Of a stretch of 64,000 nt of DNA, positions 24,050 to 58,258 are shown in pieces. The notes beneath the pieces are model-generated. The model worked only from the letters and a program-made list of their open reading frames with translations. It did not search any database and was not told the DNA's origin. The position numbers and the translations under genes are program-made. Source of the stretch: Candidatus Sysuiplasma acidicola (GTDB taxonomy: Archaea > Thermoplasmatota > Thermoplasmata > Sysuiplasmatales > Sysuiplasmataceae); assembly GCA_019721035.1 (NCBI GenBank), contig JAHEAA010000003.1, positions 54,994-118,993 of the forward strand, read 5' to 3'. The stretch's first letter is position 1, and every line of letters starts with the position of its first letter.

Positions 24050-25141
24050 ATGAAAGCAATTGTCGTTAAACCCGGCACGCCCGGCGTCATGCTGAACGAA
24101 AAAAAGGAACCTTCGCAGACAGACGGTCAGGTTCTGCTCACTCCGAGGCTGGTAGGCATATGCGGTACTGACAGGGAGATAATTTCCGCTTATTACGGCG
24201 AGGCGCCTGCTGGCGAACAGTTCCTTGCAATCGGACACGAATCACTCTGCACCGTAGCAGATCCGGGCAGCAGCACACTGCGCAGGGGCAGCCTGGTCGT
24301 TCCCACTGTGAGACGCGGATGCGGCCAGTGCTGGAGCTGTCTTCACGGCCAGTCTGACATGTGCTTCACCGGGAAATACAGGGAAAGGGGAATCAAGCAG
24401 CTGGACGGTTACAATTCCGAAGTTGTCGCCGAAGTGCCTGAGTACATCGCCGAAGTGCCCGCGGACTTAGGCGATGCAGCAGTGCTTACAGAACCTATGA
24501 CGATTGGCGAAAAGGCAATCATTCAGGCTGTCGGACTGCAGCAGAGGGTGAGATGGGAGTGCGACGGCGATTATTCATGCAGAAAGGCGCTCGTGCTCGG
24601 GACGGGCCCCGTCGGCATGCTCGCGGCTCTCGCGGCAAAAATCAGGGGATTTCAGGTGTGGGCAGCCGACCGGCATGATGACAGCACATTGCACGCAGGC
24701 ATACTGAAGAGCGCTGGCGTAACGCACATAGACAGCCGTACACAGGGCATTGTTGAGTTCGCAAAGACGATCGGCAATTTCGATTTTATTATTGAAGCAA
24801 CAGGAGATGCAGTGGTCGGCCTCGATACCGTTCCGGCTCTTTCGCCGAACGGCATTATGGCACTGACTGGCATCCCGGGCGGTGCACAAACATACCAGAT
24901 GCCTGCAGTGCAGATCATGCGCTCGCTTGTTCTCAATAACGCTCTTGTCGTAGGTATCGTCAATGCAAACCTGAGCTATTTCAAGGCAGCGCTTTATGAT
25001 ATGGTTGAAATAAACAGAAGATATCCGGGTATACTCGAGAAGATGGTAACACACCGGTTCGGGCCCGAGGATTTCTCATCCGCATACTCTCTGAGAGGGC
25101 ATGAGTCGGTGAAGGTTGTAATCGACTGGACGAAACAGTGA
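24050..25141 (+). CDS. gdh: glucose 1-dehydrogenase (Zn-dependent MDR family, Thermoplasma/Sulfolobus type)
   Basis: VGICGTDREI, FLAIGHESL, GSLVVPTVRRGCGQC and AVLTEPM closely mirror conserved blocks of the archaeal glucose dehydrogenase. Confidence 0.7.
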   Translation: MKAIVVKPGTPGVMLNEKKEPSQTDGQVLLTPRLVGICGTDREIISAYYGEAPAGEQFLAIGHESLCTVADPGSSTLRRGSLVVPTVRRGCGQCWSCLHGQSDMCFTGKYRERGIKQLDGYNSEVVAEVPEYIAEVPADLGDAAVLTEPMTIGEKAIIQAVGLQQRVRWECDGDYSCRKALVLGTGPVGMLAALAAKIRGFQVWAADRHDDSTLHAGILKSAGVTHIDSRTQGIVEFAKTIGNFDFIIEATGDAVVGLDTVPALSPNGIMALTGIPGGAQTYQMPAVQIMRSLVLNNALVVGIVNANLSYFKAALYDMVEINRRYPGILEKMVTHRFGPEDFSSAYSLRGHESVKVVIDWTKQ

Positions 25142-25146
25142 TTTGA

Positions 25147-27117
25147 ATGCCAAGGGATCTGCCGATAGGCAACGGAAAATTGCTCGTAGCCTTTGACGGC
25201 GATTATACAATCAGGGATATTTACTACCCGCATGTCGGCAGCGAAAATCATTCCGTAGGACACATGTTCAGGGTCGGTGTGTGGGTCAACGGGGCATTCA
25301 GCTGGACAAATTCACCCGGCTGGGAAAAGACTCTGCGCTATGTCCAGGATACGCTTGTCTGCGATGTGACGCTCAGGAACGATGCGCTTGGCGTTGAGCT
25401 GCATTTTCGCGATGCGGTAGACTTCGTCATCGACGCACTGGTCAGAAAAATCGAAGTGAAGAGAGTGGCCGGAAACGATGCGGAAGTCAGACTGTTTTTC
25501 CATCATGATTTTCATCTGTACGGCAATGACATTGGCGACACGGCATTTTTCGACCCGCAGCTGAATGTCGTCATACATTACAAGGGAAGGCGATATTTTC
25601 TCACAGACGCTGGCGCGGACGACGGAGCAGGCATAAGCATGTTTGCCTGCGGCCAGAAGGAGATGGAAGGCAGGGAGGGAACTTGGCGCGATGCAGAGGA
25701 CGGTATGCTTTCCGGCAACACGATATCGCAGGGCTCAGTGGATTCAGTCATCGGCATTACCTTCCGCGTGCCGGCAAACGGCAGCAGGAGCGGTTACTAC
25801 TACATGCTTGCCGGCGAGGATTATGACAGTGTGGACAGGCTTCAGAATCTTGTCAGGTCGAGGGGTGTTGACAGGTTCATAGAGAGGACGGCCAATTACT
25901 GGCGCCTCTGGTGCACGAAGGAGAAGAAAGACTTCATGGATCTGCCGCCGGAAATAGAGCAACTGTACAGGAGGAGTCTGCTGGCGATCGCCACAAACAT
26001 AGACAGCCAGGGCGGCGTCATCGCGGCCAACGACACCGATCTGCTCAGATTCAACAGGGACACTTACAGCTATGTCTGGCCGAGAGACGGGGCTCTGGTT
26101 TCTCTTGCCATGGACAATGCAGGTTATTCATCCACTTCTTCAATGTTTTACCAGTTCTGCGCCGGTGTGATAAGTCACAGGGGTTATTTTCTGCAGAAGT
26201 ACAACCCTGACGGCTCGTTCGCCAGCAGCTGGCATCCGTGGGCGCTGGGGGGTAAGCCATCGTTGCCGATACAGGAGGACGAGACTTCGCTCGTTCTGCA
26301 TGCACTCTGGAATCATTTCGAACGTTACAGGGATGTCGAGTTCTTCAAACCTCTCTACAGGCGGCTCATCAAGAATGCAGCTGATTTCATTGCCTCCTAT
26401 GTCGACAGCAGCACCGGCCTCTCCGTCGACAGCTACGATTTGTGGGAGGAGAGACGCGGCGTGTTCACATTCACATGCTCAGCAAATTATGCCGGCCTGG
26501 TAGCCGCCTCCAGATTCTGCAGCAGCTTCGGTGAAGAGGATGTGGCGGCACGGTACTCCTCGGTAGCGGCATCGCTGAAGAAGGCGATGATTGCAAATCT
26601 CTACAGCCATGAGGACGGCAGATTTCTCAGGGGACTGATATGCGATGAGGGCTCCACACCCAAAAGGGACAACGCAGTGGATGCGAGCCTCTCAGGCATC
26701 TTCCTCTTCGGCGTGCTTGAGCCGGACGATCCGATGGTCGCCGGAACTATGAAAGCGATTAAGGACAAACTCTGGGTAAGGGGCGGCATTGGCGGCGTTG
26801 CCAGATACGACGGTGACATGTATCAGCGCAGCGCGGACAGCACGGACGTGCAGGGAAATCCGTGGTTCATTTGCACGCTGTGGCTCGCGGACTGGTACAC
26901 CGCAGTGGCAAAGGACAGGAAGTCGCTGGCGAAGGCGCTGGAGCTGCTGAAGTGGACGACACAGCACGCGCTTCCGAGCGGCATACTCGCGGAGCAGATT
27001 CATCCTGGCACCGGATATCCTCTTTCCGTTTCGCCGCTCACGTGGAGCCATGCGGCATTCATTGACGCGGTCGACAGATATCTTGAAAAGGCAGGGCGGT
27101 TAGGTGATGTAAATTGA
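25147..27117 (+). CDS. GH15-family glucoamylase/trehalase
   Basis: N-terminal LPIGNGKLLVAFDGDYTIRDIYYPHVG matches the archaeal GH15 N-domain. The C-terminal (alpha/alpha)6 region carries conserved W/E-rich blocks (LWEERRGVFTFT, GNPWFICTLWLADWY). Confidence 0.75.
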   Translation: MPRDLPIGNGKLLVAFDGDYTIRDIYYPHVGSENHSVGHMFRVGVWVNGAFSWTNSPGWEKTLRYVQDTLVCDVTLRNDALGVELHFRDAVDFVIDALVRKIEVKRVAGNDAEVRLFFHHDFHLYGNDIGDTAFFDPQLNVVIHYKGRRYFLTDAGADDGAGISMFACGQKEMEGREGTWRDAEDGMLSGNTISQGSVDSVIGITFRVPANGSRSGYYYMLAGEDYDSVDRLQNLVRSRGVDRFIERTANYWRLWCTKEKKDFMDLPPEIEQLYRRSLLAIATNIDSQGGVIAANDTDLLRFNRDTYSYVWPRDGALVSLAMDNAGYSSTSSMFYQFCAGVISHRGYFLQKYNPDGSFASSWHPWALGGKPSLPIQEDETSLVLHALWNHFERYRDVEFFKPLYRRLIKNAADFIASYVDSSTGLSVDSYDLWEERRGVFTFTCSANYAGLVAASRFCSSFGEEDVAARYSSVAASLKKAMIANLYSHEDGRFLRGLICDEGSTPKRDNAVDASLSGIFLFGVLEPDDPMVAGTMKAIKDKLWVRGGIGGVARYDGDMYQRSADSTDVQGNPWFICTLWLADWYTAVAKDRKSLAKALELLKWTTQHALPSGILAEQIHPGTGYPLSVSPLTWSHAAFIDAVDRYLEKAGRLGDVN

Positions 27118-32110: not shown

Positions 32111-33073
32111 ATGAAACAGCACAGTTCCAGAGAGCTAGGGTTTATGCCGGAGTTTGATGTGACTAAGTCTGTTGTAATCAGACATCCAGAGAAAAATGCA
32201 CCGGGATACTGGGTCGGCGCTCCCTCTGCATTGGTTCTGGGTAACAGTATCTACCTGACATATAGAATCAGAAGACCGAGAGGGGAAGGCAGAGGCGTGA
32301 TAAACAGGATTGCTGTCAGCGATGACGGTATCAGTTTCAGGGATGAATTCGAAATAGAAAAGAGCGCACTTGGAAATTCGCCATCCATCGAACGGAGCTG
32401 CCTGGTCCCGATCGCGAGTGGTTTCAGATTGTATTTCAGCTATGTGAATCCGGCGACCAATGTCTGGCAGATAGATATGATGGAAGCGCCATCAGTCAAG
32501 TCCTTCGACATAGCCTCAAGAAAGAACGTGCTGACTGCGGATGCTGCGGGCGCAAGCGGGGTGAAAGACCCTTACATCGTCACAATGGGTAACTTCTATC
32601 TGATGTACGTCAGCTACGCTCCTCTACCACAGACCGCAGTGTCTGGTCTGCATGCTACCGCCGACGCCTTCGCCACCGGACTGACGACATCCAACAGCGG
32701 TCTTGCGATCAGCGCCGACGGCGTGAATTTCAGATGGGCGGGAGAGGTAATAGGTCTCGGAAAGGGATGGGATTCTAGCACTACCCGCATAAGCTCTGTT
32801 GCCAGGACTCCCTGGGGTTTCGTCTCGTTCTATGACGGCTCCGCGAGCATTGAAGAGAATTACGAAGAGAGGTGCGGTATGGCCATAACAGCCGATCTGA
32901 AGCATTTTCTGCGGCTCTCCACCGAGGCTCCGTCACTGCTTGGCGAAGGCGGCAGATCAGTGCGATACGTCGATCCGGTTATGTTCCGTGGCAAGCTGAT
33001 TTATTATTTTGAAACGACGCGTGCCGACGGGTCACACGAGCTCAGGGCGCAGCCCTGCGACGTGGAGAGCTGA
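32111..33073 (+). CDS. beta-propeller glycoside-hydrolase-like protein (GH43/GH130-like fold)
   Basis: Repeated blade-like segments with a DPYIV...FYLMYVS pattern reminiscent of 5-bladed propeller glycosidases/phosphorylases. Assignment is tentative. Confidence 0.4.
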   Translation: MKQHSSRELGFMPEFDVTKSVVIRHPEKNAPGYWVGAPSALVLGNSIYLTYRIRRPRGEGRGVINRIAVSDDGISFRDEFEIEKSALGNSPSIERSCLVPIASGFRLYFSYVNPATNVWQIDMMEAPSVKSFDIASRKNVLTADAAGASGVKDPYIVTMGNFYLMYVSYAPLPQTAVSGLHATADAFATGLTTSNSGLAISADGVNFRWAGEVIGLGKGWDSSTTRISSVARTPWGFVSFYDGSASIEENYEERCGMAITADLKHFLRLSTEAPSLLGEGGRSVRYVDPVMFRGKLIYYFETTRADGSHELRAQPCDVES

Positions 33074-33078
33074 ATTCG

Positions 33079-34170
33079 ATGCGAACAACAGGCGTTTCCA
33101 TTTTCACCGGAATGGAATACAGCGTCGAGGACAATCTGCGTTATCTGGAAAAGGCATCAAGCAAGGGGTTCAAGAGAATATTCACGAGCATGCAAAGACC
33201 GGGTTCGGACCCGGCCCGCGTCAGTGTGGAAATGCCAATCGTCACGAAGAGGGTGAAGGAACTAGGCATGGAAATCGTCACAGACATTTCTCCACGCGCT
33301 CTCACAATATTCAACGCAACGCTCGATGATCTTTCGCCATTTCGAAAAGCAGGTGTCACCGCGCTTCGTCTGGACGACGGGTTTACCAACCGACAGGCGG
33401 CCGAGATAACACATAACGAAGCCGGTCTCAGGATCGAGCTGAATGGATGCCACTATTTTGATTCCGACCTCGATGAAATGCTTGCGAATGGCGCGGACGT
33501 GCGCAACCTTCAGGCCAGTTTCAACTATTATCCGCGTTTCGAGTCAGGTATATCAATGGACTTCCTGAAGCAGCAGGCGTCCGCATACTCCGGTCATGGT
33601 ATACCCCTTTTTGCGTTCGTTCACTCGTCCACACTGCATACGCGCGTTACTGTGGAATCACACAGGTATATGTCTCCGGAGAGGGCCGCAGAGGAACTTT
33701 TTGCCGTGCACGGCATCGACACTGTGCTCATCGGCGATCCAATGGCGCCTGACAGGGATCTCGACGCGATAGCCGAAACCGGTTCAAGGGATTATGTCCG
33801 GATAAGAACCATACCGTCCAGTGACGCCACTGAAGCAGAAAAACATCTGCTGTTTGCAAACGAACTGACCGCAAAGCCTGGCACCATGCTTTCGCTGCGG
33901 CACACGTACAGATTTAAGCCGGAAGAGATTCACCGGATGGTTCCTCCGCGCAACTGCACTGCCCGCGGAGAATATTCCGTGACAATTGACAATGAGCGAT
34001 ACAGGGACGGCAACAACAATCTGAAAAATTCATGCGAGCTCAATCTATGGTTGGAGAAGATGCCCGCCGATGAGCGCATCAACGTTGTAGGCACAGTCTT
34101 CGAAGAGGACAGGGAGCTTGTCAGAATGGTCAGACCATTCAGGAAGTTTAAACTCGTTCCGTTTGTCTGA
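33079..34170 (+). CDS. mupG: DUF871/MupG-like TIM-barrel glycosidase (6-phospho-N-acetylmuramidase family)
   Basis: N-terminus GVSIFTGMEYSVEDNLRYLEKASSKGFKRIFTSMQ matches the DUF871 consensus (G.S.Y.....e....Yl..a...Gf.riFTSL). Convergent with the murQ-like gene. Confidence 0.55.
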   Translation: MRTTGVSIFTGMEYSVEDNLRYLEKASSKGFKRIFTSMQRPGSDPARVSVEMPIVTKRVKELGMEIVTDISPRALTIFNATLDDLSPFRKAGVTALRLDDGFTNRQAAEITHNEAGLRIELNGCHYFDSDLDEMLANGADVRNLQASFNYYPRFESGISMDFLKQQASAYSGHGIPLFAFVHSSTLHTRVTVESHRYMSPERAAEELFAVHGIDTVLIGDPMAPDRDLDAIAETGSRDYVRIRTIPSSDATEAEKHLLFANELTAKPGTMLSLRHTYRFKPEEIHRMVPPRNCTARGEYSVTIDNERYRDGNNNLKNSCELNLWLEKMPADERINVVGTVFEEDRELVRMVRPFRKFKLVPFV

Positions 34171-34187
34171 ATCCTTCCGACAGACGA

Positions 34188-35093
34188 TCAGAGCAGGGCA
34201 TTTCTCAGATTGCCTTTAGCTTCCGAGAGCCTGGCTTCGGCCTGCTCGACGCTCACGCCCTTCATAATCATAACAGCGGCAGTTTTTATGCTCCACCCGG
34301 CTCTTTCCAGAGCGTCTGCGGAACTGCGATAGTCTGCACCGGTTATGGTTGAAAGGATGTGCACCGATCGCTCTTTCATCTTCTCATTATGCGGTTTGAG
34401 TTCAATCATCATATTGTCGTACACCCTTCCGAGTTTAACGAAAACAGCGGACGAAATCATGTTCAGGACGAGTTTTTCCGACATTCCTGCCTTCATCCTC
34501 GATGAGCCGGCTATGACTTCCGGTCCCACCAGCAGCGTTATGACGTAATCGGCATGCTCCGCTATTGCAGCATTGCTAACGTTCACCAGCGCGGCGGATG
34601 TCGCCCCTCTCTCCTTTGCCCGCTTCATTGCGCCAATGACAAAAGGGGCTTTTCCGGACGCTGCGATGCCTATTATGAAATCGTCCTTGTGGACTTTCAG
34701 GGCATTCATGCTTTTTGCGCCGCATGCTGCACAATCCTCCGCACCCTCCTTCGCCTTTGTCATGGATCGGACGCCTCCTGCAAGAATAGACACGACAGTG
34801 CCGGTGGGTAAGCCGAAGGTCGGCACACATTCCGCGGCGTCAAGGAATCCTATTCTTCCAGCCGTCCCTGCACCCACGTATATGAGTCTTCCTCCTCTTC
34901 CAATGCATCCTGCAATAGCGTCGGTTACCTTCGCTATGACAGGCAGAGCACCTGCCACAATGCCCGGAACTTTGCTGTCCTCCTCATTTATCGTTTTCAG
35001 AAGAGATAGTGTGTCAAGCATGTCCAGTCTGCGAAATTTTTCGGATATTTCTTCCGTTTCAAGATGCATATATTTGCTTTCTGATTCAGGCAT
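34188..35093 (-). CDS. murQ: N-acetylmuramic acid 6-phosphate etherase-like SIS-domain protein
   Basis: RLIYVGAGTAGRIGFLDAAECVPTFG is nearly identical to the MurQ core (GAGTSGRLGvLDAsECpPTFg). N-terminal LDMLDTLSLLKTINEEDSKVP also matches MurQ. Last gene of the minus-strand ABC operon. The start may instead be the internal Met at about 35069. Confidence 0.7.
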   Translation of the reverse strand: MPESESKYMHLETEEISEKFRRLDMLDTLSLLKTINEEDSKVPGIVAGALPVIAKVTDAIAGCIGRGGRLIYVGAGTAGRIGFLDAAECVPTFGLPTGTVVSILAGGVRSMTKAKEGAEDCAACGAKSMNALKVHKDDFIIGIAASGKAPFVIGAMKRAKERGATSAALVNVSNAAIAEHADYVITLLVGPEVIAGSSRMKAGMSEKLVLNMISSAVFVKLGRVYDNMMIELKPHNEKMKERSVHILSTITGADYRSSADALERAGWSIKTAAVMIMKGVSVEQAEARLSEAKGNLRNALL

Positions 35094-35099
35094 AGCTGA

Positions 35100-36086
35100 T
35101 CACTCGTAAAGGAAGCATGAAGCCCCGTGCCCGTCGCCGGTATCGTACATCGGCGGTTCGGCGACGCGGCACCGATCCATGACAAACCGGCATCTGGATG
35201 CGAACCTGCATCCGCTCGCCGAATAGCTCTCTTCAGCGCCGCCGCCCGCGTCGTCCAGGGTGAGGAAGGAGGATGCCCTTTCTGGATCAGGAACTGGAAC
35301 TGAATCGACGAGCAGCATGGTGTATGGATGCTTTGGCTTCCCTATTACGTCGGCGGTCTTTCCCTGCTCCACGATCCTGCCGCGGAAGAAAATCAGCATC
35401 CTGTCACCCATGAATTTCGCACTCGATATGTCATGCGTTATGAAGAGAAAGGAGGTACCGCCGTCGCGCGAGAGTTTTTTCATCCTGTTGAGCATTTCTG
35501 CTCTCAGCGAAACGTCTAGCATGGAGACAGGTTCGTCGGCAACTATGAACTGGGGTTTCAGTATCATTGCCCGGGCTATGGACACACGCTGCCTCTGTCC
35601 TCCGCTGAGCTCGCTCGGCAGCTTGTGCATGAACTGTCCCGCGGGCTTGAGTCCCATGCTTTCAAGATGCTCAGCCACCTTTTCCTCCTTATCCTTTCGT
35701 GACAGATTCTTTTCGAAAATGTTCAGCGGTTTCGACACGCTTGCAAACACCGAGAAGAGTGGATTTAGAGAGTCATACGGGTCCTGCAGGATCATCTGTA
35801 CGTTCCGCCGGAAGGAAATCATCTCCGTCTTGCTCATGTCGAAGATGTTCTTTCCGTGAAATCTGACTTCTCCTGACGTCGGTTCCAAGAGTCGAACCAT
35901 CAGCCTTCCAAGTGTTGTCTTGCCACTGCCGCTTTCTCCGACAACAGAAACTATTTCGTTCGTTCCGATATCGAACGACGCGCCGGCGACAGCCTCGACA
36001 TGTCGTCTTTTTCCCATCCTGTTCAGAAAACTCTTCGACTGGCCGAATATTTTCCGGAGGTCTGTTACTTCAACCAGTTTTTCCAT
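35100..36086 (-). CDS. Opp/Dpp-family ABC transporter ATP-binding protein (OppF-like)
   Basis: Walker A GESGSGKTT, ABC signature LSGGQRQR, and a C-terminal oligopeptide-type extension. Confidence 0.8.
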   Translation of the reverse strand: MEKLVEVTDLRKIFGQSKSFLNRMGKRRHVEAVAGASFDIGTNEIVSVVGESGSGKTTLGRLMVRLLEPTSGEVRFHGKNIFDMSKTEMISFRRNVQMILQDPYDSLNPLFSVFASVSKPLNIFEKNLSRKDKEEKVAEHLESMGLKPAGQFMHKLPSELSGGQRQRVSIARAMILKPQFIVADEPVSMLDVSLRAEMLNRMKKLSRDGGTSFLFITHDISSAKFMGDRMLIFFRGRIVEQGKTADVIGKPKHPYTMLLVDSVPVPDPERASSFLTLDDAGGGAEESYSASGCRFASRCRFVMDRCRVAEPPMYDTGDGHGASCFLYE

Positions 36087-37074
36087 TCACTGACATCTCC
36101 GCGTTATGGCACGAAACCAAATGTGCATCTCCCAGCGCACGCAATTCAGGCGTCTCTCTCGTACACAATTCTGTAGCGATATTGCATCTCGGAGCAAACG
36201 GACAACCACCGATGTCGCTCGAAAGGTCAGGCGGCGAGCCGTTTATCTCAACAAGCTCTGTCTGTCTTTCGTCGATGCGCGGTATGGTAGACATGAGCCC
36301 CCTCGTGTATGGATGAAGGGGCCTCCTGAATAGCGTCTTCACATCGCCGATTTCTACGATCGAACCGGCATACATCACTGCGACCCTGTCTGCGATTGAC
36401 GCGAGGAGTGAAATGTCATGCGTTATGAATATTACAGACAGATTGAGTTTATCTTTCGTATCCATCAGCAGTTTCAATATCTTCCTCTGCACAACGACAT
36501 CCAGCGCTGTTGTGGGTTCATCCGCCACGACAAGTTCGGGGCCGCAGACGAGCGCCATCGCTATGGCAACCCTCTGCTTCATGCCACCGGAGAGCTCATG
36601 AGGATAGTTCTTCCGTATCGAGTCGTCAAGGTGCACAAGCTCAAGATAGGACGTTATGTTGTTCTCGATTGTTTCATCGTTGAATCCATGCCAGAACATG
36701 GCATCCGCCAGCTGATCGCCTATTCTTGCCACCGGATTCAGCGAGTTCATGGATCCCTGAAAAACGACAGAGACGTGCTTCCACCTGAGTCTTCTCAGTT
36801 CCTTTTCGGACAGCTTCAGTATTTCGATGCCTTCTCCCAGTGAGCTGTCTTCCGCGTTGAACACCATCTTTTCTGCGGAGATGTCAGTCGATTTGGGAAG
36901 CAGACGCAACAGCGACATGCCGAATGTGGACTTGCCACATCCACTCTCCCCTACGAGTCCGACAACTTCTCCTCTTCTGATGGATATGGACAGATTCCTG
37001 ACAGCATGAATGGTCCTGTTCTTTGTCCTGTATCGGATGTTCAATTTCGAAACTTCAAGCAATTCCGTGTGCAA
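36070..37074 (-). CDS. Opp/Dpp-family ABC transporter ATP-binding protein (OppD-like)
   Basis: Walker A GESGCGKST, LSGGMKQR, Walker B VVADEPTTALD. Confidence 0.8.
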   Translation of the reverse strand: MHTELLEVSKLNIRYRTKNRTIHAVRNLSISIRRGEVVGLVGESGCGKSTFGMSLLRLLPKSTDISAEKMVFNAEDSSLGEGIEILKLSEKELRRLRWKHVSVVFQGSMNSLNPVARIGDQLADAMFWHGFNDETIENNITSYLELVHLDDSIRKNYPHELSGGMKQRVAIAMALVCGPELVVADEPTTALDVVVQRKILKLLMDTKDKLNLSVIFITHDISLLASIADRVAVMYAGSIVEIGDVKTLFRRPLHPYTRGLMSTIPRIDERQTELVEINGSPPDLSSDIGGCPFAPRCNIATELCTRETPELRALGDAHLVSCHNAEMSVNGKTG

Positions 37075-37965
37075 TCACCCTGTCCTCATTTCCAGTGTAG
37101 TCTCAGCTATTCCGTTTGCGAGCATGTTCAGGCCCATGCCCAGGACACCGATGGCAATGCCCGGTGGGACTATCCACCACCACGCACTCTGTATTGCGGC
37201 ATCTTCGACCTGGGCCCAGTAGAGCATTGTTCCCCAGTTGACTGAATTCACATTTCCAAGCCCGAAGAACGCCAGACCGGCCTGTGCAATTATTGCGCCG
37301 ATGACGAGAAAAATCATGTTTATGAATATTATGGGTGCCATGTTCGGAAAGATGTCCTTGAACATTATGCTCAGATTACCGGATCCGGAGAGTTTCGAAA
37401 CTGCAACATATCCCCTCTCCTTCAGCGTAAGCACCTGCGATCTCACTACCCTGGACATGAATGGCCAGGAAAGCAGCGAGAGAATCAGTATGGTGGATGT
37501 GTTTGTGGGTGGAAGATATGCGCTCAGTATGACAAGCAGGGGAAAGGCTGGTATGACAAGGAGCATGTCGACAAAACGCATCAGTACGTCATCGGTATAT
37601 TTACCGAGGTACCCCGCGGTAAGTCCTACGGAGATGCCTATGCTGCTCGAAAACAGCGCGACGAAGAAACCCACCTTCAGCGACGTCGCAGTGCCTATGA
37701 CAAACCATGAGAAAACATCCTGACCGAGGTAGTTTGTGCCCAAAATATGCCTGGCTGAAGGCGGACTCCAAGGCGCTCCCGATTGCGCCAGAGGACTGAA
37801 TGGTGCAATGAATTTTCCGAGCAGACCAAGCGCGATGAAAAACAGCACTATAGATGCACCGAGAATGAATTTCCTGTTGTGTGTGAGTGGTATCAGCGGA
37901 CGTAGCAGTCTCTTCACAAGGAAGCGTACCGGGGATTGCTGCTTCACATCTGTCGAACTGTTCAA
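37075..37965 (-). CDS. Opp/Dpp-family ABC transporter permease (OppC-like)
   Basis: Six TM helices, EAA-like loop. ATGA-type overlap with the upstream permease gene. Confidence 0.8.
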   Translation of the reverse strand: MNSSTDVKQQSPVRFLVKRLLRPLIPLTHNRKFILGASIVLFFIALGLLGKFIAPFSPLAQSGAPWSPPSARHILGTNYLGQDVFSWFVIGTATSLKVGFFVALFSSSIGISVGLTAGYLGKYTDDVLMRFVDMLLVIPAFPLLVILSAYLPPTNTSTILILSLLSWPFMSRVVRSQVLTLKERGYVAVSKLSGSGNLSIMFKDIFPNMAPIIFINMIFLVIGAIIAQAGLAFFGLGNVNSVNWGTMLYWAQVEDAAIQSAWWWIVPPGIAIGVLGMGLNMLANGIAETTLEMRTG

Positions 37966-38984
37966 ATTAGACTCACTCTCGGATCAATAATTGTATAGAT
38001 GATGTCCACAATGAAATTGGCAAGTATGACGCACAGGCTTATGATCAGGAAAATGCCTTGCATTAGCGGGTAATCTTCGCTCTGTATCGCCGAAAAGAGC
38101 GTATATCCGAGTCCTGGATAGGCAAAAAGATATTCCACCATGAGTGCGCCTGCGACAACGTATCCCAGCGCTATGCCTACGTGGGTGGTCACGGGCAGTA
38201 TGGCATTTCGGGCAGCGTATCTGTTCTTTATAACATGGTTCGGCAGTCCTTTTGCAAAGGCCGTCAGTATGTAATCTTCATGCATTACGGTTATCATGGT
38301 GTTGCGCATCTGCAGCGCATAGCCTGGCATCAGGGCTATGACGAGCGTAGATATGGGCAAAACCGCATGATACAGAACGTCCCCTAGAAACGCAAATTCA
38401 TTGTGGTATGTGACACCTTGGGATACGGCATGTGCAACTGGAAAAATCGTAATATCTACGGCGAAGAAAATCAGCAGTATAATGCCTATCCAGAAGTAAG
38501 GTATCGATGAAATCAGCATGCCTGCTGATGAAATCAGCGAGTCAGGCAGTGTTCCTTTTCTCCACGCAAGAAAAATACCGAGCGGTATGCCAAGCAGGGC
38601 GGCAAATATTGTTCCGGATCCTGCAAGAAACAGCGTCCACGGCAGTCTCTGCAGTATCACCGAAGTGACACTCTGCGGATAGTAATAGAATGAAATGCCC
38701 AGGTTGCCGTGGACAAGCTCGACAAGATATCTGTAATACTGATAGAGCAGATTCGGATTGTTCAGTCCGAACTCCTGAGTGAGCCTCTGTACCACGACCG
38801 GATTCCCTATCTGTCCGCCTCCGCCTCCAAACAGGTTCGCCATAACAGGATTGCCTGGTATTATTCTCGGAAGAAAAAAATTGAGCGTTATCGCACCGTA
38901 TGCGATGACCGCCATGTTTACGAGTCTTCTCAGCAGATACCGTTTGCCGATCAATCTTACCGTCTCCTTCTGCGTAAGCGGCAT
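37962..38984 (-). CDS. Opp/Dpp-family ABC transporter permease (OppB-like)
   Basis: Polytopic BPD-transporter permease with the conserved EDY...A(K/R)G(L) region. Confidence 0.8.
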   Translation of the reverse strand: MPLTQKETVRLIGKRYLLRRLVNMAVIAYGAITLNFFLPRIIPGNPVMANLFGGGGGQIGNPVVVQRLTQEFGLNNPNLLYQYYRYLVELVHGNLGISFYYYPQSVTSVILQRLPWTLFLAGSGTIFAALLGIPLGIFLAWRKGTLPDSLISSAGMLISSIPYFWIGIILLIFFAVDITIFPVAHAVSQGVTYHNEFAFLGDVLYHAVLPISTLVIALMPGYALQMRNTMITVMHEDYILTAFAKGLPNHVIKNRYAARNAILPVTTHVGIALGYVVAGALMVEYLFAYPGLGYTLFSAIQSEDYPLMQGIFLIISLCVILANFIVDIIYTIIDPRVSLI

Positions 38985-39032: not shown

Positions 39033-40859
39033 TTACTTGTTATGCCTTTCCTTCAGCCTCTTCCTTCTGACATAGAATATCGCAGCTGCGACACCCCCGA
39101 GAATCAGTACCACGATTCCTCCTCCTATGTACGGGAGGTAATTGGGAGCAGTTTCGTTTACGTATTGCAGAACGTCGATGTGTTCAACGCTGATCATCCA
39201 TGCAATGTTGTAACTTGGTGTGTTATCTCTGATTGTCTGATTGTTGTAGCTGAAGAATGTAGGGGGGTCCGATGTCATTGCCACTGGAACCTGTGCCGCA
39301 ATGATCTGCTGCACACTGTCCAGCAGCTGCTGAACCTTGGTGCTGTTGGATGTGGATGCAGCTTGTGTGAGCAGACTATTGACTGTCGTGTTGTTGTAGC
39401 GTTCCACGTTCCACCCGTGGGTCCAGACGAATTGGCCCATGGGTGCTGAGGACTTGTTGGAGAACAGAGAATAGAGCACGCTCCAAGCATTTGGCGCATA
39501 GCCTGTGTATCCGAAGTATGTGAGTTGATACTTGCCGTAGCCTGTGTTCGAGTTCCACTGTGCAAACGTATTTGCCACATATGTTGTCTTAATTCCGAAT
39601 GCAGTCAGGTTGTTGGCTATCACGTTTCCGGCAGTAACCCAGTCTGCGAGCGGAGGCTCAATCAAAGTGACAGTTACCTGTGTGCCGTTGGGGTAGTACC
39701 ACTGACCTCCTTTCTGAGTAAATCCACCGTCCTTCATCATAATCGCTGCCTCTGTGAGGTTGTAGTGGTAGAATGGCAGTCCTGCGGGTATCTGATTCTT
39801 GTAAAGTGCCGGAAGCGCTCCGTACGAACCTGTGAGTCCCGCTCCTGCAAGAGCGAGCAGGTTCAAGTTCGTCTTGTTTATGACATATGCTACAGCCTTT
39901 CTTGCATATGTGTTGTTAAATGGCGCAATTGCGTTGTTCATCCAAGCGAAGAATTCGTATGTTGAGGGAGCACTTACGCTTCGTATATAGGGTATTTTTG
40001 CGAAAAGTGCTCTGTCTGTGTAGGGCCCCCAGAATGCATCAATCGTCTTGCTTTCAAGCGCAGCAGTGGCATCTGAAGTGGTCTTGAAATATTCCCATAC
40101 CATTTTTGCGTAAGAGGGCGGTCCGTTGAAGAAATGCTTGTTTGCACTGAACACTGTTCCAGCAGTTGTAGACATGCTGTTCAGTATCAGCGGGCCGTCG
40201 GTTATCAGGTTCGTCGCCTGATACGTCCCAGATGTAATGTTTGTCGCGTAATTCGTGAAACTTGAGAGATTGGAAGTGTACGGGCTGTTGCCCCATGCTG
40301 CCGGAATGATAGGCTCTGTTCCTATTTCATAAATCAGCGGGCTGTAGAACGTTTTCATTTTGAATACAACCGTATAGTTGTTTAAGGCAACTACACTTTG
40401 GATGTAATTATTGAATGAGAAAAAGTCAATGCTTGGTGTATTGATCAGCGATTGAAATGTATATGTGACATCTTTGGCAGTAACAGACTGTCCGTTGGAC
40501 CACGTCGCATTGTGGACTAGATTAAATGTGAACGTGAGGCCGTTGTTTGTCACGTTGTATGACTTTGCGAGCCACGGTATGACTCCGCCGCTCGTTCCCG
40601 GGTATAGGAGTGAACTGTACAGCAGAGCATCTATGTCTCCTGCCATGCTTGTGGCTGTGAGCGGATTCAGATTGGTGAGTGTGCCCTGGATAGAACCGAA
40701 GATGAATGTACCGTTCGGATTTATCTTGGCTACTTGTTTTGCGGAAGCAACACCTACGAAGCTGCCGCCGAATACACTACCGATCAGCAGTAAAGCGGAA
40801 GCGACGGAAAACGCGATCAATGCCCTTCGCATGAAAAATATTCTTTTTCTCTCAGTCAT
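39033..40859 (-). CDS. family-5 solute-binding protein (Opp/Dpp-like) with C-terminal TM anchor
   Basis: 608 aa. N-terminal signal/anchor, Asn/Thr-rich body, C-terminal hydrophobic helix plus basic tail (GGIVVLILGGVAAAIFYVRRKRLKERHNK), typical of archaeal membrane-anchored SBPs. Confidence 0.75.
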   Translation of the reverse strand: MTERKRIFFMRRALIAFSVASALLLIGSVFGGSFVGVASAKQVAKINPNGTFIFGSIQGTLTNLNPLTATSMAGDIDALLYSSLLYPGTSGGVIPWLAKSYNVTNNGLTFTFNLVHNATWSNGQSVTAKDVTYTFQSLINTPSIDFFSFNNYIQSVVALNNYTVVFKMKTFYSPLIYEIGTEPIIPAAWGNSPYTSNLSSFTNYATNITSGTYQATNLITDGPLILNSMSTTAGTVFSANKHFFNGPPSYAKMVWEYFKTTSDATAALESKTIDAFWGPYTDRALFAKIPYIRSVSAPSTYEFFAWMNNAIAPFNNTYARKAVAYVINKTNLNLLALAGAGLTGSYGALPALYKNQIPAGLPFYHYNLTEAAIMMKDGGFTQKGGQWYYPNGTQVTVTLIEPPLADWVTAGNVIANNLTAFGIKTTYVANTFAQWNSNTGYGKYQLTYFGYTGYAPNAWSVLYSLFSNKSSAPMGQFVWTHGWNVERYNNTTVNSLLTQAASTSNSTKVQQLLDSVQQIIAAQVPVAMTSDPPTFFSYNNQTIRDNTPSYNIAWMISVEHIDVLQYVNETAPNYLPYIGGGIVVLILGGVAAAIFYVRRKRLKERHNK

Positions 40860-41095
40860 AATTCCCGGTGAATGGAACAGATGTATAAATGACTGATTAT
40901 TATTAGCATGGTTATCATAAAACAGTTTCTCCCAATCATAGGCATCTCAGACAAGCAAGAATGAAAAGATTACCTTCGTTCCTATGAACAGGCGCAGCTC
41001 AGTGACTGCGCTTTTCTTGCTCGCTGACGGAGTCTGGCTGCGGACATGGTCCGATTATTTAATATAGTGATAACAAATCACATGCTCGCGATTTA
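40860..41095. promoter_or_regulatory. divergent promoter region between the two Opp-family ABC operons
   Basis: 236-bp AT-richer spacer with TATA-like boxes (TGTATAAATGA near 40885; TTATTTAATATAG near 41055) facing each operon. Confidence 0.4.
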
Positions 41096-42865
41096 ATGAA
41101 TAAGAAAATCGTGTCTTTGCTGATAGCCGTGTTGCTGTCGACGAGTATATTCTTTGTTTTGGTGCCGGAGTCAGACAGGGCCTCTTCAACCCCCGTTACA
41201 CTGACCGTAGGCATCGTCTCGCCCGGAGCAATAACAAATCTGAATCCGTGGGAAGCAGGCGGTCAGTCTGCCATAACGACCGACCAGTTGCGCGGGTTGT
41301 ATTATCTCACGCTTATGCTTCAGGCACCCAATGGAACACTCATGCCACAGCTTGCGCAATCCTGGAGTGCCAACGCGAATGCAACGGTATACACATTCAA
41401 CCTGGTACCGAATCTGAAATGGTCTGACGGGACACCGCTCACCGCGAACGATGTGGTCTATTCCTTCAGGCTGCTGCAGCAGCACCCCCTGTTTGACACT
41501 CTCAACGGTTTCATCGTAGGCTCACTGTTGAAGAATGTCACTGCTCTGAGCAGCACCTCTGTTCAGTTTACACTGACGCACCCGTTTTCTCCGTTTCTCG
41601 ACTACGCATCGCTTGGAAAGTACATCGTGCCTGAGCACATTTTCTCTGCGATTTCCAACATAACGGCCTATACTGGTTCATCATCGCCGGTCGGTGATGG
41701 TCCATACCTGCTTGTGAACTGGACGCCCGGTTCAACTGTTCTGCACTACAAGGCAAACCCCTACTTCTATATGGGCAAGCCAAAGATTACAAACCTTGCA
41801 GTGGAGCTGCTTTCACCGACGGCAAACATTCCCGCTCTCCTGCAAACCGGTGAGATAACACTCGCTCAGCCCTCGCCGAGTCAGGTGGCTGCTCTCAGCG
41901 GCGTGAGTCACGTCGGTGTCTCTGTGTCGCCCGGAATATCGATTGTTGGCACATACTTCGATCCGGCAGGTCTGTTCATGTTTGACGACGCGCTGTACCC
42001 GTACAACATAACCACGGTGAGGCAGGCTCTGGCTTACAGCATAAACAGGACGCAGATTGTGCAGCTTGCCCTGAACGGCTACGGAACCGCGGGAAATCAG
42101 GGACAGTTGCCTCCTTCGCTTTCCCAGTGGATACCGTCCACTCTTGCCAACTATACATTCAATCCAAGTAAGGCACGATCAATGCTGCTGGGCCTCGGCT
42201 TCAAGAACGGCAGCAACGGTTATCTCACATTCCCGAACGGGACCGCATGGACACCCAAGATAATGGATGTGGGTGGCACGGCGAGTAGTGTAGTCAGCGT
42301 AATAGTGCAGAATCTGCATGCTGCCGGCATCGACGCGTCCGAGTCTGTTGTCACTATAGGTACCATTGTCAATGCGCTAGAGTACGGTACATTCGATATG
42401 ATATTGCTCGGAACAAGCAGGCCGCCGATTCCCGACTTCGTCCTCGGCGTCTTCGTCACCAACTCTGTTACGCCGGTAGGAACACAGGAACTCGACTATC
42501 ACGGATGGGCCAGGTGGTCCAATCAGACAGTCTGGAACGATCTGAATCAGGCCAGAAACGTCAGCGGTTTCTCCCAGCAGTACCAGCTGTATGCGAATGT
42601 GCAGCAGATCATGGCAACTCAGGTGCCGCTCATCGTGCTGTACTACGGACAGAACATATGGGCATATTCCAATGCGACCATCGGCGGATGGGGTCCAGCT
42701 GCCCAGGGATATCAGTTCCCCCAGGCTCCGTTGCTGATGAGCCTGCATGGACCTGCCACGGTTGCTACATCCAACAACGGAGTGGTGTACGCTGCAGCGG
42801 GACTTGTGGTCGTTCTGGCGGTCATCGCTGTGGCGGTTTATGTGTTAAGGAAACGGCAAAGGTAG
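41096..42865 (+). CDS. family-5 solute-binding protein (second, paralogous) with C-terminal TM anchor
   Basis: 589 aa, same architecture as 39033-40859. C-terminal anchor VVVLAVIAVAVYVLRKRQR. Confidence 0.75.
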   Translation: MNKKIVSLLIAVLLSTSIFFVLVPESDRASSTPVTLTVGIVSPGAITNLNPWEAGGQSAITTDQLRGLYYLTLMLQAPNGTLMPQLAQSWSANANATVYTFNLVPNLKWSDGTPLTANDVVYSFRLLQQHPLFDTLNGFIVGSLLKNVTALSSTSVQFTLTHPFSPFLDYASLGKYIVPEHIFSAISNITAYTGSSSPVGDGPYLLVNWTPGSTVLHYKANPYFYMGKPKITNLAVELLSPTANIPALLQTGEITLAQPSPSQVAALSGVSHVGVSVSPGISIVGTYFDPAGLFMFDDALYPYNITTVRQALAYSINRTQIVQLALNGYGTAGNQGQLPPSLSQWIPSTLANYTFNPSKARSMLLGLGFKNGSNGYLTFPNGTAWTPKIMDVGGTASSVVSVIVQNLHAAGIDASESVVTIGTIVNALEYGTFDMILLGTSRPPIPDFVLGVFVTNSVTPVGTQELDYHGWARWSNQTVWNDLNQARNVSGFSQQYQLYANVQQIMATQVPLIVLYYGQNIWAYSNATIGGWGPAAQGYQFPQAPLLMSLHGPATVATSNNGVVYAAAGLVVVLAVIAVAVYVLRKRQR

Positions 42866-42872
42866 ATCTGAG

Positions 42873-43865
42873 TTGGGCATATCTGTGCGTTTTCTGGTGC
42901 GGCGTGCACTGTACGCCGTACTGACTTTTTTCATCGCGCTGCTTATGATTTTTATCATACCGCGCCTGATTGCAGTCAATCCTGTTGAGATAATAGCCGC
43001 ATCACAGCAGCTCCCGCCTTCGGCCATCAAGCAGCTGACGGCGCAGTTTGGATTGGACAAGCCGCTTTACGTTCAGTTTCTCCTGTATCTCAAGAACGTG
43101 GTTTTCACATTCCCCCCAAATCTTGGTTTTTCTTATGAATACTATCCTCAGTCCGTCTGGTCTCTGCTCGTTATATCACTTCCATGGACACTCTTCCTTG
43201 TTGGAAGCTCCGTCGCTATTTCCGCATTTGCAGGCACTATGGCCGGTCTGTACGCCGGTATGAATCGCGGCAAGGCGCTTGACAGGCTCCTTACATACAC
43301 CGCGATGACCACACAATCAATGCCGTACTTCTGGATCGCAATCATGTTCCAAATAGTTCTCGCGGTAGTACTGAGGCTGTTCCCGATAGGCGGCGCAATA
43401 TCCATAACAGATACGAGTCCTATGTTCTCGCCCCAGTACATACAGGATGTTCTCTATCACGCCATGCTGCCAATGATTACAATCATCGTAGCCACGACCC
43501 CAGTTTACGCCATTATAATGAGGAACACGCTCGCAGACATTATTCGGGAGGATTACATGGTGGCGGGCGAAGCGAAGGGGCTTCGCAAATCGCGTCTCTA
43601 TTATAAGTATGGCCTGCGCAACGGCATCCTTCCGATCGTGAGCCTTATTGCCGTTCATTTCGGCTATGTCGTCGGCGGCGCCCTGCTTGTGGAGATTGTA
43701 TTCAGTTATCCGGGAGTTGGCACACTCCTCTTCAACGCGATCCTTTCACACGATTACCCGATTATCCAGGGTGTTTTCTATATTCTCGGCATCACCGTAA
43801 TTGGCGCGAATTTCATCGCGGACGTAATCTATTCCTACATTGACCCGAGGATCCGATATTCATGA
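42873..43865 (+). CDS. Opp/Dpp-family ABC permease (OppB-like)
   Basis: Polytopic permease, paralog of 37962-38984. Confidence 0.8.
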   Translation: MGISVRFLVRRALYAVLTFFIALLMIFIIPRLIAVNPVEIIAASQQLPPSAIKQLTAQFGLDKPLYVQFLLYLKNVVFTFPPNLGFSYEYYPQSVWSLLVISLPWTLFLVGSSVAISAFAGTMAGLYAGMNRGKALDRLLTYTAMTTQSMPYFWIAIMFQIVLAVVLRLFPIGGAISITDTSPMFSPQYIQDVLYHAMLPMITIIVATTPVYAIIMRNTLADIIREDYMVAGEAKGLRKSRLYYKYGLRNGILPIVSLIAVHFGYVVGGALLVEIVFSYPGVGTLLFNAILSHDYPIIQGVFYILGITVIGANFIADVIYSYIDPRIRYS

Positions 43866-44755
43866 TGATGCAGGAGTTGAAGCTTGAAAGACTCTTCAAA
43901 ACCGAGTCTGGAACGGATACCTTCCTGAAGAAACTGCTAATGAACAGGGGCGGAATGACCGGCCTCATCATACTGTCCGCTCTCGCCTTTATCGCTCTCT
44001 TTTCATCGTTCATAGCGCCATACTCTCCTTACGCTATCGTAGCGAAACCGTACCTGCCGTCGAGTGCTGCCCATCTTTTCGGAACGGATGGGCTGGGAAG
44101 GGACATTTTCAGCCAGATGATTTACGGGACACGTCTGTCGCTCGAGATAGGCTTCGTTTCCGCTGTAGGTATTACATCGATTGGTACGCTCGTCGGCATT
44201 GTGTCCGGGTACATCGGTTCATTCGTTGACGAGGTACTGATGAGATTCGTGGATGTTATGCTTGTTATACCATCGATTGCCTTCATGATATTCGTTTCAA
44301 CAATTATGGGTCCGGGTGTGATAACCGTTCTCACTGTAATCATTGTGTTCGGTTGGCCCCCAATGTCCAGGATGATACGGTCACAGGTGCTCTCCCTGAA
44401 AAAACGCGGTTTCGTTGAGAGTGCCATTGTAAGCAATACAACGAAAACTTTTATTCTTTTCAGGATGATATTGCCGAACATCATTTCACTGATACTGGCA
44501 AATGCCCTGCTCGCCGTGATTTATGCAATAATCGCCGATGCTTCACTGGCATTCATCGGCCTCGCGAGCACGACGAGTTACAGCTGGGGGACTGTTCTTT
44601 ACAACGCACAGATTGAAGGAGCGATATATCACAACGGCATACTGTGGATTACGCTGCCTGGTCTGGCTATCGCACTCACAGGAGTGTCCATGACACTGCT
44701 TGCGAGAGCGTTTGGTGACATAACTGATCCGCGCTATTCGACAGAGGGAAGGTGA
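43862..44755 (+). CDS. Opp/Dpp-family ABC permease (OppC-like)
   Basis: Polytopic permease. ATGA overlap on both sides. Confidence 0.8.
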   Translation: MMMQELKLERLFKTESGTDTFLKKLLMNRGGMTGLIILSALAFIALFSSFIAPYSPYAIVAKPYLPSSAAHLFGTDGLGRDIFSQMIYGTRLSLEIGFVSAVGITSIGTLVGIVSGYIGSFVDEVLMRFVDVMLVIPSIAFMIFVSTIMGPGVITVLTVIIVFGWPPMSRMIRSQVLSLKKRGFVESAIVSNTTKTFILFRMILPNIISLILANALLAVIYAIIADASLAFIGLASTTSYSWGTVLYNAQIEGAIYHNGILWITLPGLAIALTGVSMTLLARAFGDITDPRYSTEGR

Positions 44756-49665: not shown

Positions 49666-49779
49666 GTTATCTGATTACGGTCACAACACACATCTACATT
49701 ATTTGATCGCAGACTGAGGCTTGTCTTTCAGTTGCCGATCATCGGTCAATCACTGTCTCCTGTCCGCACGCATGTGCAT

Positions 49780-51390: not shown

Positions 51391-51485
51391 CAGCCGTGCA
51401 AGTATGTCAAAGAAAGCATAATGCTTGCGATTACTGCCGCGGGAAAGTCTTATTAGATATAGTCAATTCAGGCCAGTTGAACGAA

Positions 51486-58242: not shown

Positions 58243-58258
58243 TTTTTCAGTCTGTTTT
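58243..58258 (+). terminator. T-rich tract (TTTTTCAGTCTGTTTT) downstream of VOC gene
   Basis: Oligo-T runs about 65 nt after the VOC stop, a possible archaeal-type terminator. Lies within the 3' end of the convergent lysS gene. Confidence 0.2.

Follow-up and report, generated by a model that had tools for sequence, protein, structure and literature searches.

Within 64,000 nucleotides of DNA from Candidatus Sysuiplasma acidicola (contig JAHEAA010000003.1; hereafter the window, whose first letter is position 1), we investigated the minus-strand gene at 34188–35093. The gene is predicted to encode a genuine bacterial-type MurQ, the N-acetylmuramic acid 6-phosphate etherase, and it is the last gene of an operon for an Opp-type ATP-binding cassette (ABC) importer. 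The organism, from the Sysuiplasma group of Thermoplasmata, is an archaeon without peptidoglycan. We believe that the locus is probably a laterally acquired salvage system for peptidoglycan sugars, with ABC import in place of the bacterial phosphotransferase system (PTS), and that the cell feeds on wall fragments. Because the host makes no peptidoglycan, the substrate of MurQ would have to come from outside the cell.

The gene stands as follows.

34188–35093, minus strand: murQ, for N-acetylmuramic acid 6-phosphate etherase, at the end of the operon, identified by NCBIfam models, PDB structures and aligned glutamates.

The open reading frame (ORF) begins with ATG and encodes 301 residues. An earlier note on this DNA had called the product a MurQ-like etherase on the strength of a core motif, GAGTAGRIGFLDAAECVPTFG, which we located at residues 74–94, and both profile and structure searches agree with that call. 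Three NCBIfam MurQ models score above their cut-offs, each spanning approximately residues 9–300: NF003915 at 353 bits (cut-off 168, E = 1e-105), NF009222 at 312.6 bits (cut-off 255), and TIGR00274, the MurQ equivalog, at 307.3 bits (cut-off 302). The closest solved structure is MurQ (PDB 4s12, E = 8.5e-75), and the H. influenzae MurQ structure matches over residues 13–300 at E = 1e-63; MurQ structures align without gaps over nearly the full length. Judged from these sequence comparisons, the similarity to the MurQ family is far above chance. The product also has the MurQ architecture, a single SIS domain and a C-terminal helical region in about 300 residues, with SIS-type Pfam domains at residues 52–196 and a weak GKRP-like lid match at residues 227–265. 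Public annotation already calls a related archaeal homolog (P0011, 55% identical) MurQ.

Next to these family-level matches stands an alignment of nine sequences, comprising the query, E. coli MurQ (NC_000913), four archaeal sequences (two close orthologs and two more distant homologs), and three MurQs from Bacillota. Glu88 and Glu119 of the query correspond to Glu83 and Glu114 of E. coli MurQ, which work by Hadi and colleagues in 2008 is said to have identified as the catalytic residues. Both are invariant in all nine sequences, and both also match the equivalent glutamates of the H. influenzae MurQ structure. The earlier note had left room for a proper alignment without the catalytic glutamates, or for a closer fit to KpsF/GutQ or GCKR; both glutamates are present, and the best hidden Markov model fit is to MurQ. 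The enzyme is predicted to cleave the D-lactyl ether by elimination and hydration via Glu88 and Glu119, which would give N-acetylglucosamine 6-phosphate (GlcNAc-6-phosphate) and D-lactate.

Two other identities for an SIS-domain protein were considered and rejected. GKRP/GCKR structures match only a 70–115-residue SIS stretch, at E values of about 1e-22 to 1e-19 compared with 1e-75 for MurQ. Furthermore, GKRP/GCKR needs two SIS domains plus a lid in about 620 residues, whereas the query has one SIS domain in 301. Pfam labels such as GKRP_SIS_N reflect shared domain ancestry. As for the KpsF/GutQ arabinose-5-phosphate isomerases, no such model or structure appears among the NCBIfam, Pfam and PDB matches of the query, and there is no CBS domain.

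Five same-strand Opp genes precede murQ, in keeping with its earlier description as the terminal gene of an Opp-type operon. The operon and its signals, in order of transcription from the first gene, are:

40884–40889, minus strand: TTTATA box, candidate archaeal promoter, 25–30 nt upstream of the binding-protein start codon.
39033–40859, minus strand: family-5 (Opp/Dpp-type) binding protein, first gene of the operon (Pfam SBP_bac_5, E = 8e-52).
37962–38984, minus strand: OppB-like permease (BPD_transp_1 and BPD_transp_1_N), overlapping the next gene by 4 nt.
37075–37965, minus strand: OppC-like permease (BPD_transp_1), abutting the next gene with a gap of 0.
36070–37074, minus strand: OppD-like ATPase (ABC_tran and oligo_HPY), overlapping the next gene by 17 nt.
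35100–36086, minus strand: OppF/DppF-like ATPase (ABC_tran and oligo_HPY).
35098–35105, minus strand: Shine-Dalgarno-like motif GAGTGATC, of the GGTGAT type, lying over the TGA stop of oppF, with 4 nt between it and the murQ ATG.

The gaps along the six genes are +48, −4, 0, −17 and +6 nt. At the last junction, the oppF TGA lies at 35102–35100 and the murQ ATG at 35093–35091; six nucleotides separate them, and the murQ start is the seventh, the 7-nt distance given in the earlier note. Opp-MurQ adjacency is found in six archaeal lineages, that is, the query and five others (L001, L002, L035/L036, L042–L044, and L041) whose MurQs are 55–75% identical. The full order of five Opp genes and then murQ is seen in L035, L036 and L042–L044, and the L041 contig starts within the operon, with two ATPase genes and then murQ. 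The sequence G(G/A)GTGAT is kept at the oppF-murQ junction in L001, L002, L035 and L042 and is degenerate in L041 (GGGTAGAT). Given the tight packing, the motif placed on the oppF stop and the conserved junction, it is strongly suggested that the Opp genes and murQ are co-transcribed and translationally coupled.

Inspection of the sequence directly before murQ revealed no TATA-like box, and the internal genes of the operon, murQ included, are preceded by GGTGAT- or GGAG-like motifs. The GGTGAT-type motif presumably pairs with the 3′ end of 16S rRNA. L002 has the TTTATA box before its binding-protein gene too, and in L001, L035, L036 and L042 an A/T-rich box is found equally far from the first gene. 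We regard the TTTATA box as a candidate promoter, from which the transcript would be leaderless or carry a short leader. Leaderless first genes and Shine-Dalgarno-led internal genes are the common pattern in archaea.

Transposase genes (DDE_Tnp_1, IS66 and IS21-type) flank the Opp-murQ operon in L035 (2455–4029 and 13312–13572) and L036 (11912–13840), two contigs of one Thermoplasmatota lineage that have an identical MurQ and different flanks. This suggests that the operon of that lineage sits in a mobile or rearranging region.

The importer belongs to the Opp/Dpp (peptide/nickel, family-5) class, as one operon encodes an SBP_bac_5 binding protein, two BPD_transp_1 permeases, and two oligo_HPY ATPases. 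The binding protein starts with a signal or transmembrane segment, ends in a transmembrane anchor that has a basic tail, and contains 17 N-X-S/T sequons, in archaeal style. Orthologs that are 66–88% identical head the operon in L001, L002, L035, L036 and L042. The ligand would be MurNAc-containing fragments (MurNAc, N-acetylmuramic acid). Members of this class that carry sugars set a precedent. They include Pyrococcus CbtA and Sulfolobus systems, whose binding proteins are built in the same membrane-anchored way. Sugar binders of this family also occur among the binding protein's weak solved relatives, namely, Thermotoga cellobiose and mannoside binders and a Vibrio chitin-oligosaccharide binder, though the similarity to such sugar-carrying systems (E values of at least 1e-14) is too low to assign specificity. 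We know of no sugar transporter of the Opp/Dpp class that carries MurNAc-containing ligands.

Alternatively, the Opp system could be an ordinary peptide importer, with murQ as an unrelated passenger or with stem peptides imported while the sugars enter by another route. The class itself is a peptide/nickel family, and the best NCBIfam models of 35100–36086 are those of the dipeptide and oligopeptide ATPases DppF/OppF, below their equivalog cut-offs. The solved relatives of the binding protein are all weak (E values of at least 4e-18) and include nickel, peptide, chitin-oligosaccharide, cellobiose, mannoside and murein-peptide binders, the last being the murein-tripeptide binder MppA. Thermoplasmatota have also been described as peptide degraders with oligopeptide transporters (PMC12220078). 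However, the NCBIfam transporter equivalogs are far below their cut-offs (260 against 540 for OppF and 34 against 947 for OppA), and the family includes binders of cellobiose, mannoside and chitin oligosaccharides, a precedent for sugars. Moreover, the OppF-MurQ junction and its ribosome-binding motif are kept in genomes where MurQ is only 55–57% identical and the flanks vary. We therefore consider an ordinary peptide importer unlikely and favor the import of wall sugars.

Among species-representative genomes, close relatives of MurQ were found only in Ca. Sysuiplasma superficiale (73%) and Thermoplasmata archaeon WH2.bin25 (75%), and the next matches are from Bacillota, at 45% or less. Both of these archaeal loci have the five Opp genes, murQ, a convergent mupG and a 320-residue gene, with proteins 73–92% identical. 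In L002, synteny runs on to an Lhr helicase (91%) and a cyclase gene (88%). More distant MurQ homologs (55–57%) come from Thermoplasmatota-named metagenome-assembled genomes (MAGs) and unbinned contigs. The binding proteins carry a signal at the N-terminus and a basic-tailed transmembrane anchor at the C-terminus, and they have 2.2–2.8 N-glycosylation sequons per 100 residues versus 0–0.6 in the enzymes.

If the contig were bacterial, chimeric or mis-binned, the archaeal assignment would be an artifact. All enzymes of the cluster have bacterial proteins as their nearest characterized relatives, and tRNA and Rfam scans found no rRNA or tRNA gene in the window to anchor its taxonomy. The lysyl-tRNA synthetase at 58247–59749 (minus strand) is of the class II, “bacterial-type” kind (TIGR00499, 623 bits); many archaea have a class I enzyme. 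Nevertheless, three independent Thermoplasmata/Thermoplasmatota MAGs have the same operon, with housekeeping synteny at 88–92% identity, and a related island is present in a complete 2.2-Mb genome labeled “uncultured archaeon” (CP009479.1). The sugar kinase associated with the operon in L041 has named homologs that are all archaeal, almost all of them from Thermoplasmata/Thermoplasmatota. The C-terminal anchors are archaeal, as are a TATA element about 30 nt before first genes and Shine-Dalgarno motifs at internal genes, and GC content and GC content at third codon positions (GC3) are uniform over the window. A bacterial, chimeric or mis-binned contig is thus very improbable.

Composition was also used to look for a recent transfer or contamination, which we rejected, as the GC3 of murQ (0.54) is within the range of its operon neighbors (0.53–0.64), at the low end. 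In a neighbor-joining tree without support values, all archaeal MurQs group together as a single clade inside bacterial diversity. This placement and a GC3 in the local range are consistent with an old transfer. The simplest history would be a single ancient acquisition from bacteria, after which the gene was inherited vertically within Thermoplasmatota.

Convergent with murQ lies a pair of genes on the opposite strand.

33079–34170, plus strand: MupG-like (DUF871) glycosidase without a signal peptide, convergent on murQ (Pfam MupG_N and MupG_C).
32111–33073, plus strand: 320-residue cytoplasmic protein, probably a glycosidase or phosphorylase, a predicted five-bladed β-propeller, 5 nt upstream of mupG.

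The spacer between mupG and murQ is 34171–34187, the 17 nt that the earlier note gave for a convergent DUF871/MupG-like gene. Both MupG domains pass their Pfam cut-offs (MupG_N, 197.4 bits against 24; MupG_C, 46.3 bits against 24.4), and the protein matches the DUF871 structures 1x7f and 2p0o at E values of about 1e-33; a scan of NCBIfam gave no match. Orthologs that are 62–86% identical are present in L001, L002, L036 and L041, and similarity to DUF871 proteins of Bacillota is low, with 24.5% identity to that of the locus L003. The characterized MupG acts on MurNAc-6P-GlcNAc produced by the PTS (PMC6262408). It has been argued that archaeal MupG-like proteins probably differ in function, as archaea lack peptidoglycan, and that distant DUF871 members may differ in specificity (PMC6262408).

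The 320-residue protein has no sequence match in Pfam, NCBIfam or the PDB. It has 974 homologs, mostly bacterial “hypothetical” proteins. Its AlphaFold model (pLDDT 93.3) is a five-bladed β-propeller, and the nearest folds are GH130 mannoside phosphorylases/synthase, GH117 and GH43 (glycoside hydrolase, or GH, families), with a TM-score of about 0.6. From this model, the protein may represent an undescribed family of glycosidases or phosphorylases. The pair of MupG and propeller genes recurs in L001, L002 and L041, making four archaeal loci with the query. Two bacterial homologs of the propeller have generic sugar-utilization or unrelated neighbors, which do not indicate specificity.

An ABC importer cannot phosphorylate its cargo, while MurQ and the characterized MupG act on 6-phosphorylated sugars; a separate kinase would therefore be needed. 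Bacteria make their 6-phosphorylated substrates during PTS uptake (PMC6262408). In the window, we scanned about 60 ORFs for pathway genes, covering most of those of at least 150 residues plus some smaller ones, and found among them no PTS genes and no MurR regulator. A likely source of the phosphate is seen in L041, where OppD-OppF-MurQ and the convergent MupG-propeller pair are followed by a kinase of the BadF/BcrAD type, a NagA that passes its equivalog cut-off, and a NamZ. This kinase is 28–29% identical to the product of a gene directly upstream of murQ in Paenibacillus. The neighborhood of the kinase in other archaeal genomes is as follows.

L045 (CP009479.1, complete 2.2-Mb genome, “uncultured archaeon”): beside the kinase, AnmK, an uncalled MurQ-like gene, NagB-II, NamZ and GH3.
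L045 (CP009479.1), further genes beside the kinase: S13 and M55 D-peptidases, a diaminopimelate (DAP) decarboxylase and an Opp system.
L046: beside the kinase, NlpC/P60, GH3, NagA, MurQ and an S12 protein.
L049: beside the kinase, NagA, an S12 protein, an SIS-domain protein, LdcA-type S66, NamZ, an L-Ala-D/L-Glu-epimerase-type enolase and GH3.

The MurQ-like, S12 and GH3 genes of L045 are present in the DNA and absent from the called genes. Like L045, L046 and L049, L047 is a Thermoplasmata genome with a large island of murein-recycling-type genes. The island in the window is one version of a wider Thermoplasmata trait.

These islands bear on another reading, in which the MurQ and MupG homologs work on a sugar that the archaeon makes itself, a lactyl-ether or a related 3-O-substituted amino sugar, and the cell recycles its own surface glycans (glycoproteins or lipoglycans). 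The published argument for another function of archaeal MupG-like proteins (PMC6262408) fits such a role, as does the annotation of N-acetylmuramic acid among metabolites of Metallosphaera sedula (PMC11750793), although that mass-spectrometric annotation is weak and concerns another phylum. The archaeal MurQ clade also differs from the aligned bacterial sequences at the GTSGR loop. On the other hand, the protein passes the MurQ equivalog cut-off with both catalytic glutamates present, and this locus or related ones have murein-specific neighbors, namely, AnmK, NamZ, LdcA-type S66, S13 and M55 D-peptidases, NlpC/P60, DAP decarboxylase and an enzyme of the L-Ala-D/L-Glu-epimerase type. We find it doubtful that an endogenous sugar is the substrate, and bacterial peptidoglycan remains the preferred source.

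Other genes of the window may take part in the use of peptidoglycan.

49780–51390, minus strand: cytoplasmic GH3 β-N-acetylglucosaminidase, NagZ type (Glyco_hydro_3, E = 1e-75).
46712–47815, minus strand: cytoplasmic S12/β-lactamase-fold protein (D-peptidase, PBP4B/AmiE-like; Pfam Beta-lactamase, E = 6e-48).
53427–54575, minus strand: 382-residue distant GH18 protein with an N-terminal signal or transmembrane segment (solved relatives YdhD, SleL and YaaH).
41096–46708, plus strand: second Opp-type ABC operon (binding protein, two permeases, two ATPases; Pfam), divergent from the first.

The GH3 protein has a β-N-acetylhexosaminidase model as its best NCBIfam match, below the cut-off, and with the NagZ model of NCBIfam it reaches 155.8 bits, short of the 207 required. 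Its top eight solved relatives, B. subtilis NagZ/YbbD included, are GlcNAc-ases or a GH3 enzyme without a named specificity. At residue 180, it carries KHFPGHGASKSDSH, which fits K-H-F-P-G-H-G-x4-D-[ST]-H, a pattern that we take to be the NagZ signature. In Ca. Sysuiplasma superficiale, a GH3 ortholog (67%) is encoded directly upstream of the Opp-MurQ operon. The best NCBIfam model of the S12 protein is PBP4B, the yfeW product in the E. coli murQ-murP-yfeW locus. Its solved relatives are an alkaline D-peptidase and DD-carboxypeptidases, and the SITK and HTG motifs are present. S12 homologs (27–34% identity) lie beside murQ in Erysipelotrichaceae, Holdemania and Pontibacillus loci, and S12/GH3 homologs flank murQ in these three and in Paenibacillus. 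Both the GH3 protein and the S12 protein are probable members of the pathway. Between their genes, within 46712–51390 on the minus strand, is a gene for a CehA/McbA-type metallohydrolase (DUF3604). None of the three proteins has a signal peptide.

The 382-residue protein gave no match in Pfam. Its solved relatives are YdhD (2.8e-7), then a GH18 protein and a probable chitinase, then SleL (1e-4) and YaaH (4e-4). YdhD is a putative sporulation glycosylase, and SleL and YaaH are spore-cortex enzymes; the DFE catalytic motif of the query aligns with YdhD. A homolog that is 49% identical lies about 1 kb downstream of murQ in L035 (11885–13036) and matches Pfam GH18 at 1.5e-6. The 382-residue protein is possibly an extracellular glycan-cutting enzyme. 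On either side of its gene lie a PF01663 phosphodiesterase-family protein of 671 residues (51396–53411, plus strand) and a sulfatase (54639–56102, minus strand), and homologs of these two that are 65% identical adjoin the Opp-murQ operon in L036 (1534–3450) and L042 (410–1933). One idea is that they remove phosphodiester-linked wall polymers from C6 of MurNAc.

The second Opp system is 29–43% identical to the first. It adjoins the first in L002, though not in L001, and whether it takes part in the pathway is uncertain. With the TTG start annotated at 45530, its second ATPase gene runs 200 nt into the gene before it; the true start probably lies further downstream.

The sequence comparisons show family membership, the catalytic residues, the archaeal host, which proteins are cytoplasmic and which are at the surface, and the gene order with its conservation; the ligand of the transporter, the sequence of steps, co-transcription and a kinase in this genome are inferred. 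Taken together, the pathway would probably run as follows. Outside the cell, bacterial wall would be cut, possibly by the secreted GH18 protein plus acid or bacterial autolysins. The anchored family-5 binding protein would capture MurNAc-GlcNAc or GlcNAc-MurNAc units, with or without peptide, for import by the ABC system. In the cytoplasm, the NagZ-type GH3 enzyme would remove terminal GlcNAc, the AmiE/PBP4B-like S12 protein would remove or trim the peptide, and the MupG-like glycosidase and its propeller partner would split MurNAc-GlcNAc. A BadF-type sugar kinase encoded elsewhere in the genome would phosphorylate C6, as the PTS does in bacteria. MurQ would then take off D-lactate to leave GlcNAc-6-P, and NagA and NagB would pass the product to glycolysis. 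In its full form, the proposal is that wall-less, acidophilic Thermoplasmata eat bacterial peptidoglycan through a MurNAc pathway acquired laterally and then rewired, with an Opp importer specific for MurNAc-disaccharides or muropeptides in place of the PTS, a BadF-type kinase, and the propeller with the MupG-like glycosidase. We give this full scheme an even chance of being correct.

Several observations weigh against the salvage of peptidoglycan sugars by this route. The margin of TIGR00274 is small, only 5 bits over its cut-off, and the archaeal MurQ clade has a GTAGR loop where the aligned bacterial sequences have GTSGR. No solved structure is close to the binding protein, and the weak matches do not tell a sugar ligand from peptide or nickel. 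Archaea, to our knowledge, have no PTS, and the characterized MupG needs a substrate made by one. Our scan of window ORFs yielded no sugar kinase, NagA or NagB, and none turned up within 10 kb in L001 or L002; we infer that the kinase is encoded elsewhere in this genome. The missing support values of the MurQ tree also count here.

Two further features of the window were observed. A glucose-dehydrogenase-family gene followed by a GH15 glucoamylase/“oligosaccharide amylase”-like gene occupies 24050–27117 (plus strand). Non-phosphorylative sugar catabolism is typical of Thermoplasmata, and this gene pair fits it. A large sensor-like protein of 1351 residues with GAF domains and a C-terminal DUF835 is encoded at 4399–8454 (minus strand).

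MurNAc catabolism usually serves bacteria in the recycling of their own wall, whereas a wall-less host would consume only the walls of others. In this archaeon, the coupling of uptake to phosphorylation by a PTS would be replaced by an Opp-type ABC importer in the operon of the etherase itself, an arrangement conserved across Thermoplasmatota lineages. The proposal offers a testable answer to the question of what archaeal DUF871 proteins do, which was raised when MupG was discovered. If true, it would supply a reason for archaeal DUF871/MupG genes and give archaea a defined role in the turnover of bacterial cell-wall necromass. The β-propeller proteins, an uncharacterized family of about 1000 homologs with no Pfam entry, are likely amino-sugar glycosidases or phosphorylases. 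We found no description of an archaeal MurQ pathway in the literature that we searched, although a prior mention in the Sysuiplasmatales genome paper is possible.

Among known systems, the E. coli locus murQ-murP-yfeW, with its divergent murR, is similar in that uptake and ether cleavage are encoded together and a PBP4B-type gene is associated (yfeW in E. coli, 46712–47815 here). The archaeal MurQ is 39% identical to that of E. coli over its full length and has both catalytic glutamates. However, in E. coli the PTS protein MurP imports and phosphorylates MurNAc in one step, while here a five-gene Opp-type ABC system imports without phosphorylation. The E. coli locus serves MurNAc and anhydro-MurNAc catabolism and has murR, of which there is none among the ORFs scanned in the archaeal window. 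With an archaeal host that has no murein, the purpose would be scavenging and not recycling.

In the S. aureus cluster mupG-murQ-murP-murR (Kluj et al. 2018, PMC6262408), a MupG-family glycosidase is encoded beside MurQ, as it is here. After an extracellular N-acetylglucosaminidase has freed MurNAc-GlcNAc and the cell has taken it up, MupG splits it and MurQ cleaves the ether (PMC6262408); the archaeal window likewise has a secreted GH18 protein related to cortex-lytic glucosaminidases. Unlike in S. aureus, no PTS gene appears among the ORFs scanned here, and either a disaccharide kinase is needed or the archaeal MupG may accept the unphosphorylated sugar. Furthermore, the archaeal mupG is convergent on murQ, not co-transcribed with it, and is paired with the β-propeller gene.

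The gene order in B. subtilis is murQ-murR-murP-amiE-nagZ-namZ. The archaeal window shares with it MurQ, a GH3 NagZ and a β-lactamase-fold protein of the AmiE type, and the same set is present in the Pontibacillus locus L010, where an adjacent pair is 32% identical to the GH3 and S12 proteins of the window. A NamZ and a BadF-type kinase are found in both the archaeal locus L041 and Pontibacillus L010. NagZ and AmiE of B. subtilis are exported and act outside the cell, whereas the archaeal GH3 and S12 proteins have no signal peptides and would trim the fragments after import, as in Gram-negative recycling.

PTS-independent use of MurNAc is seen in Clostridium with MurK. The logic that we propose is that of the Tannerella forsythia MurT-MurK-MurQ system, in which the sugar enters without a PTS and a separate kinase phosphorylates MurNAc before MurQ acts (PMC5790795). 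The Tannerella importer differs in being a single-component permease and not an ABC system, and our scan of window ORFs found no kinase gene. What is new is the archaeal host and the operon arrangement, MurQ itself being a textbook enzyme. The archaeal system is set apart from its known counterparts by a host without murein, an Opp ABC importer within the murQ operon, trimming enzymes in the cytoplasm, and a MupG paired with a propeller of no described family.

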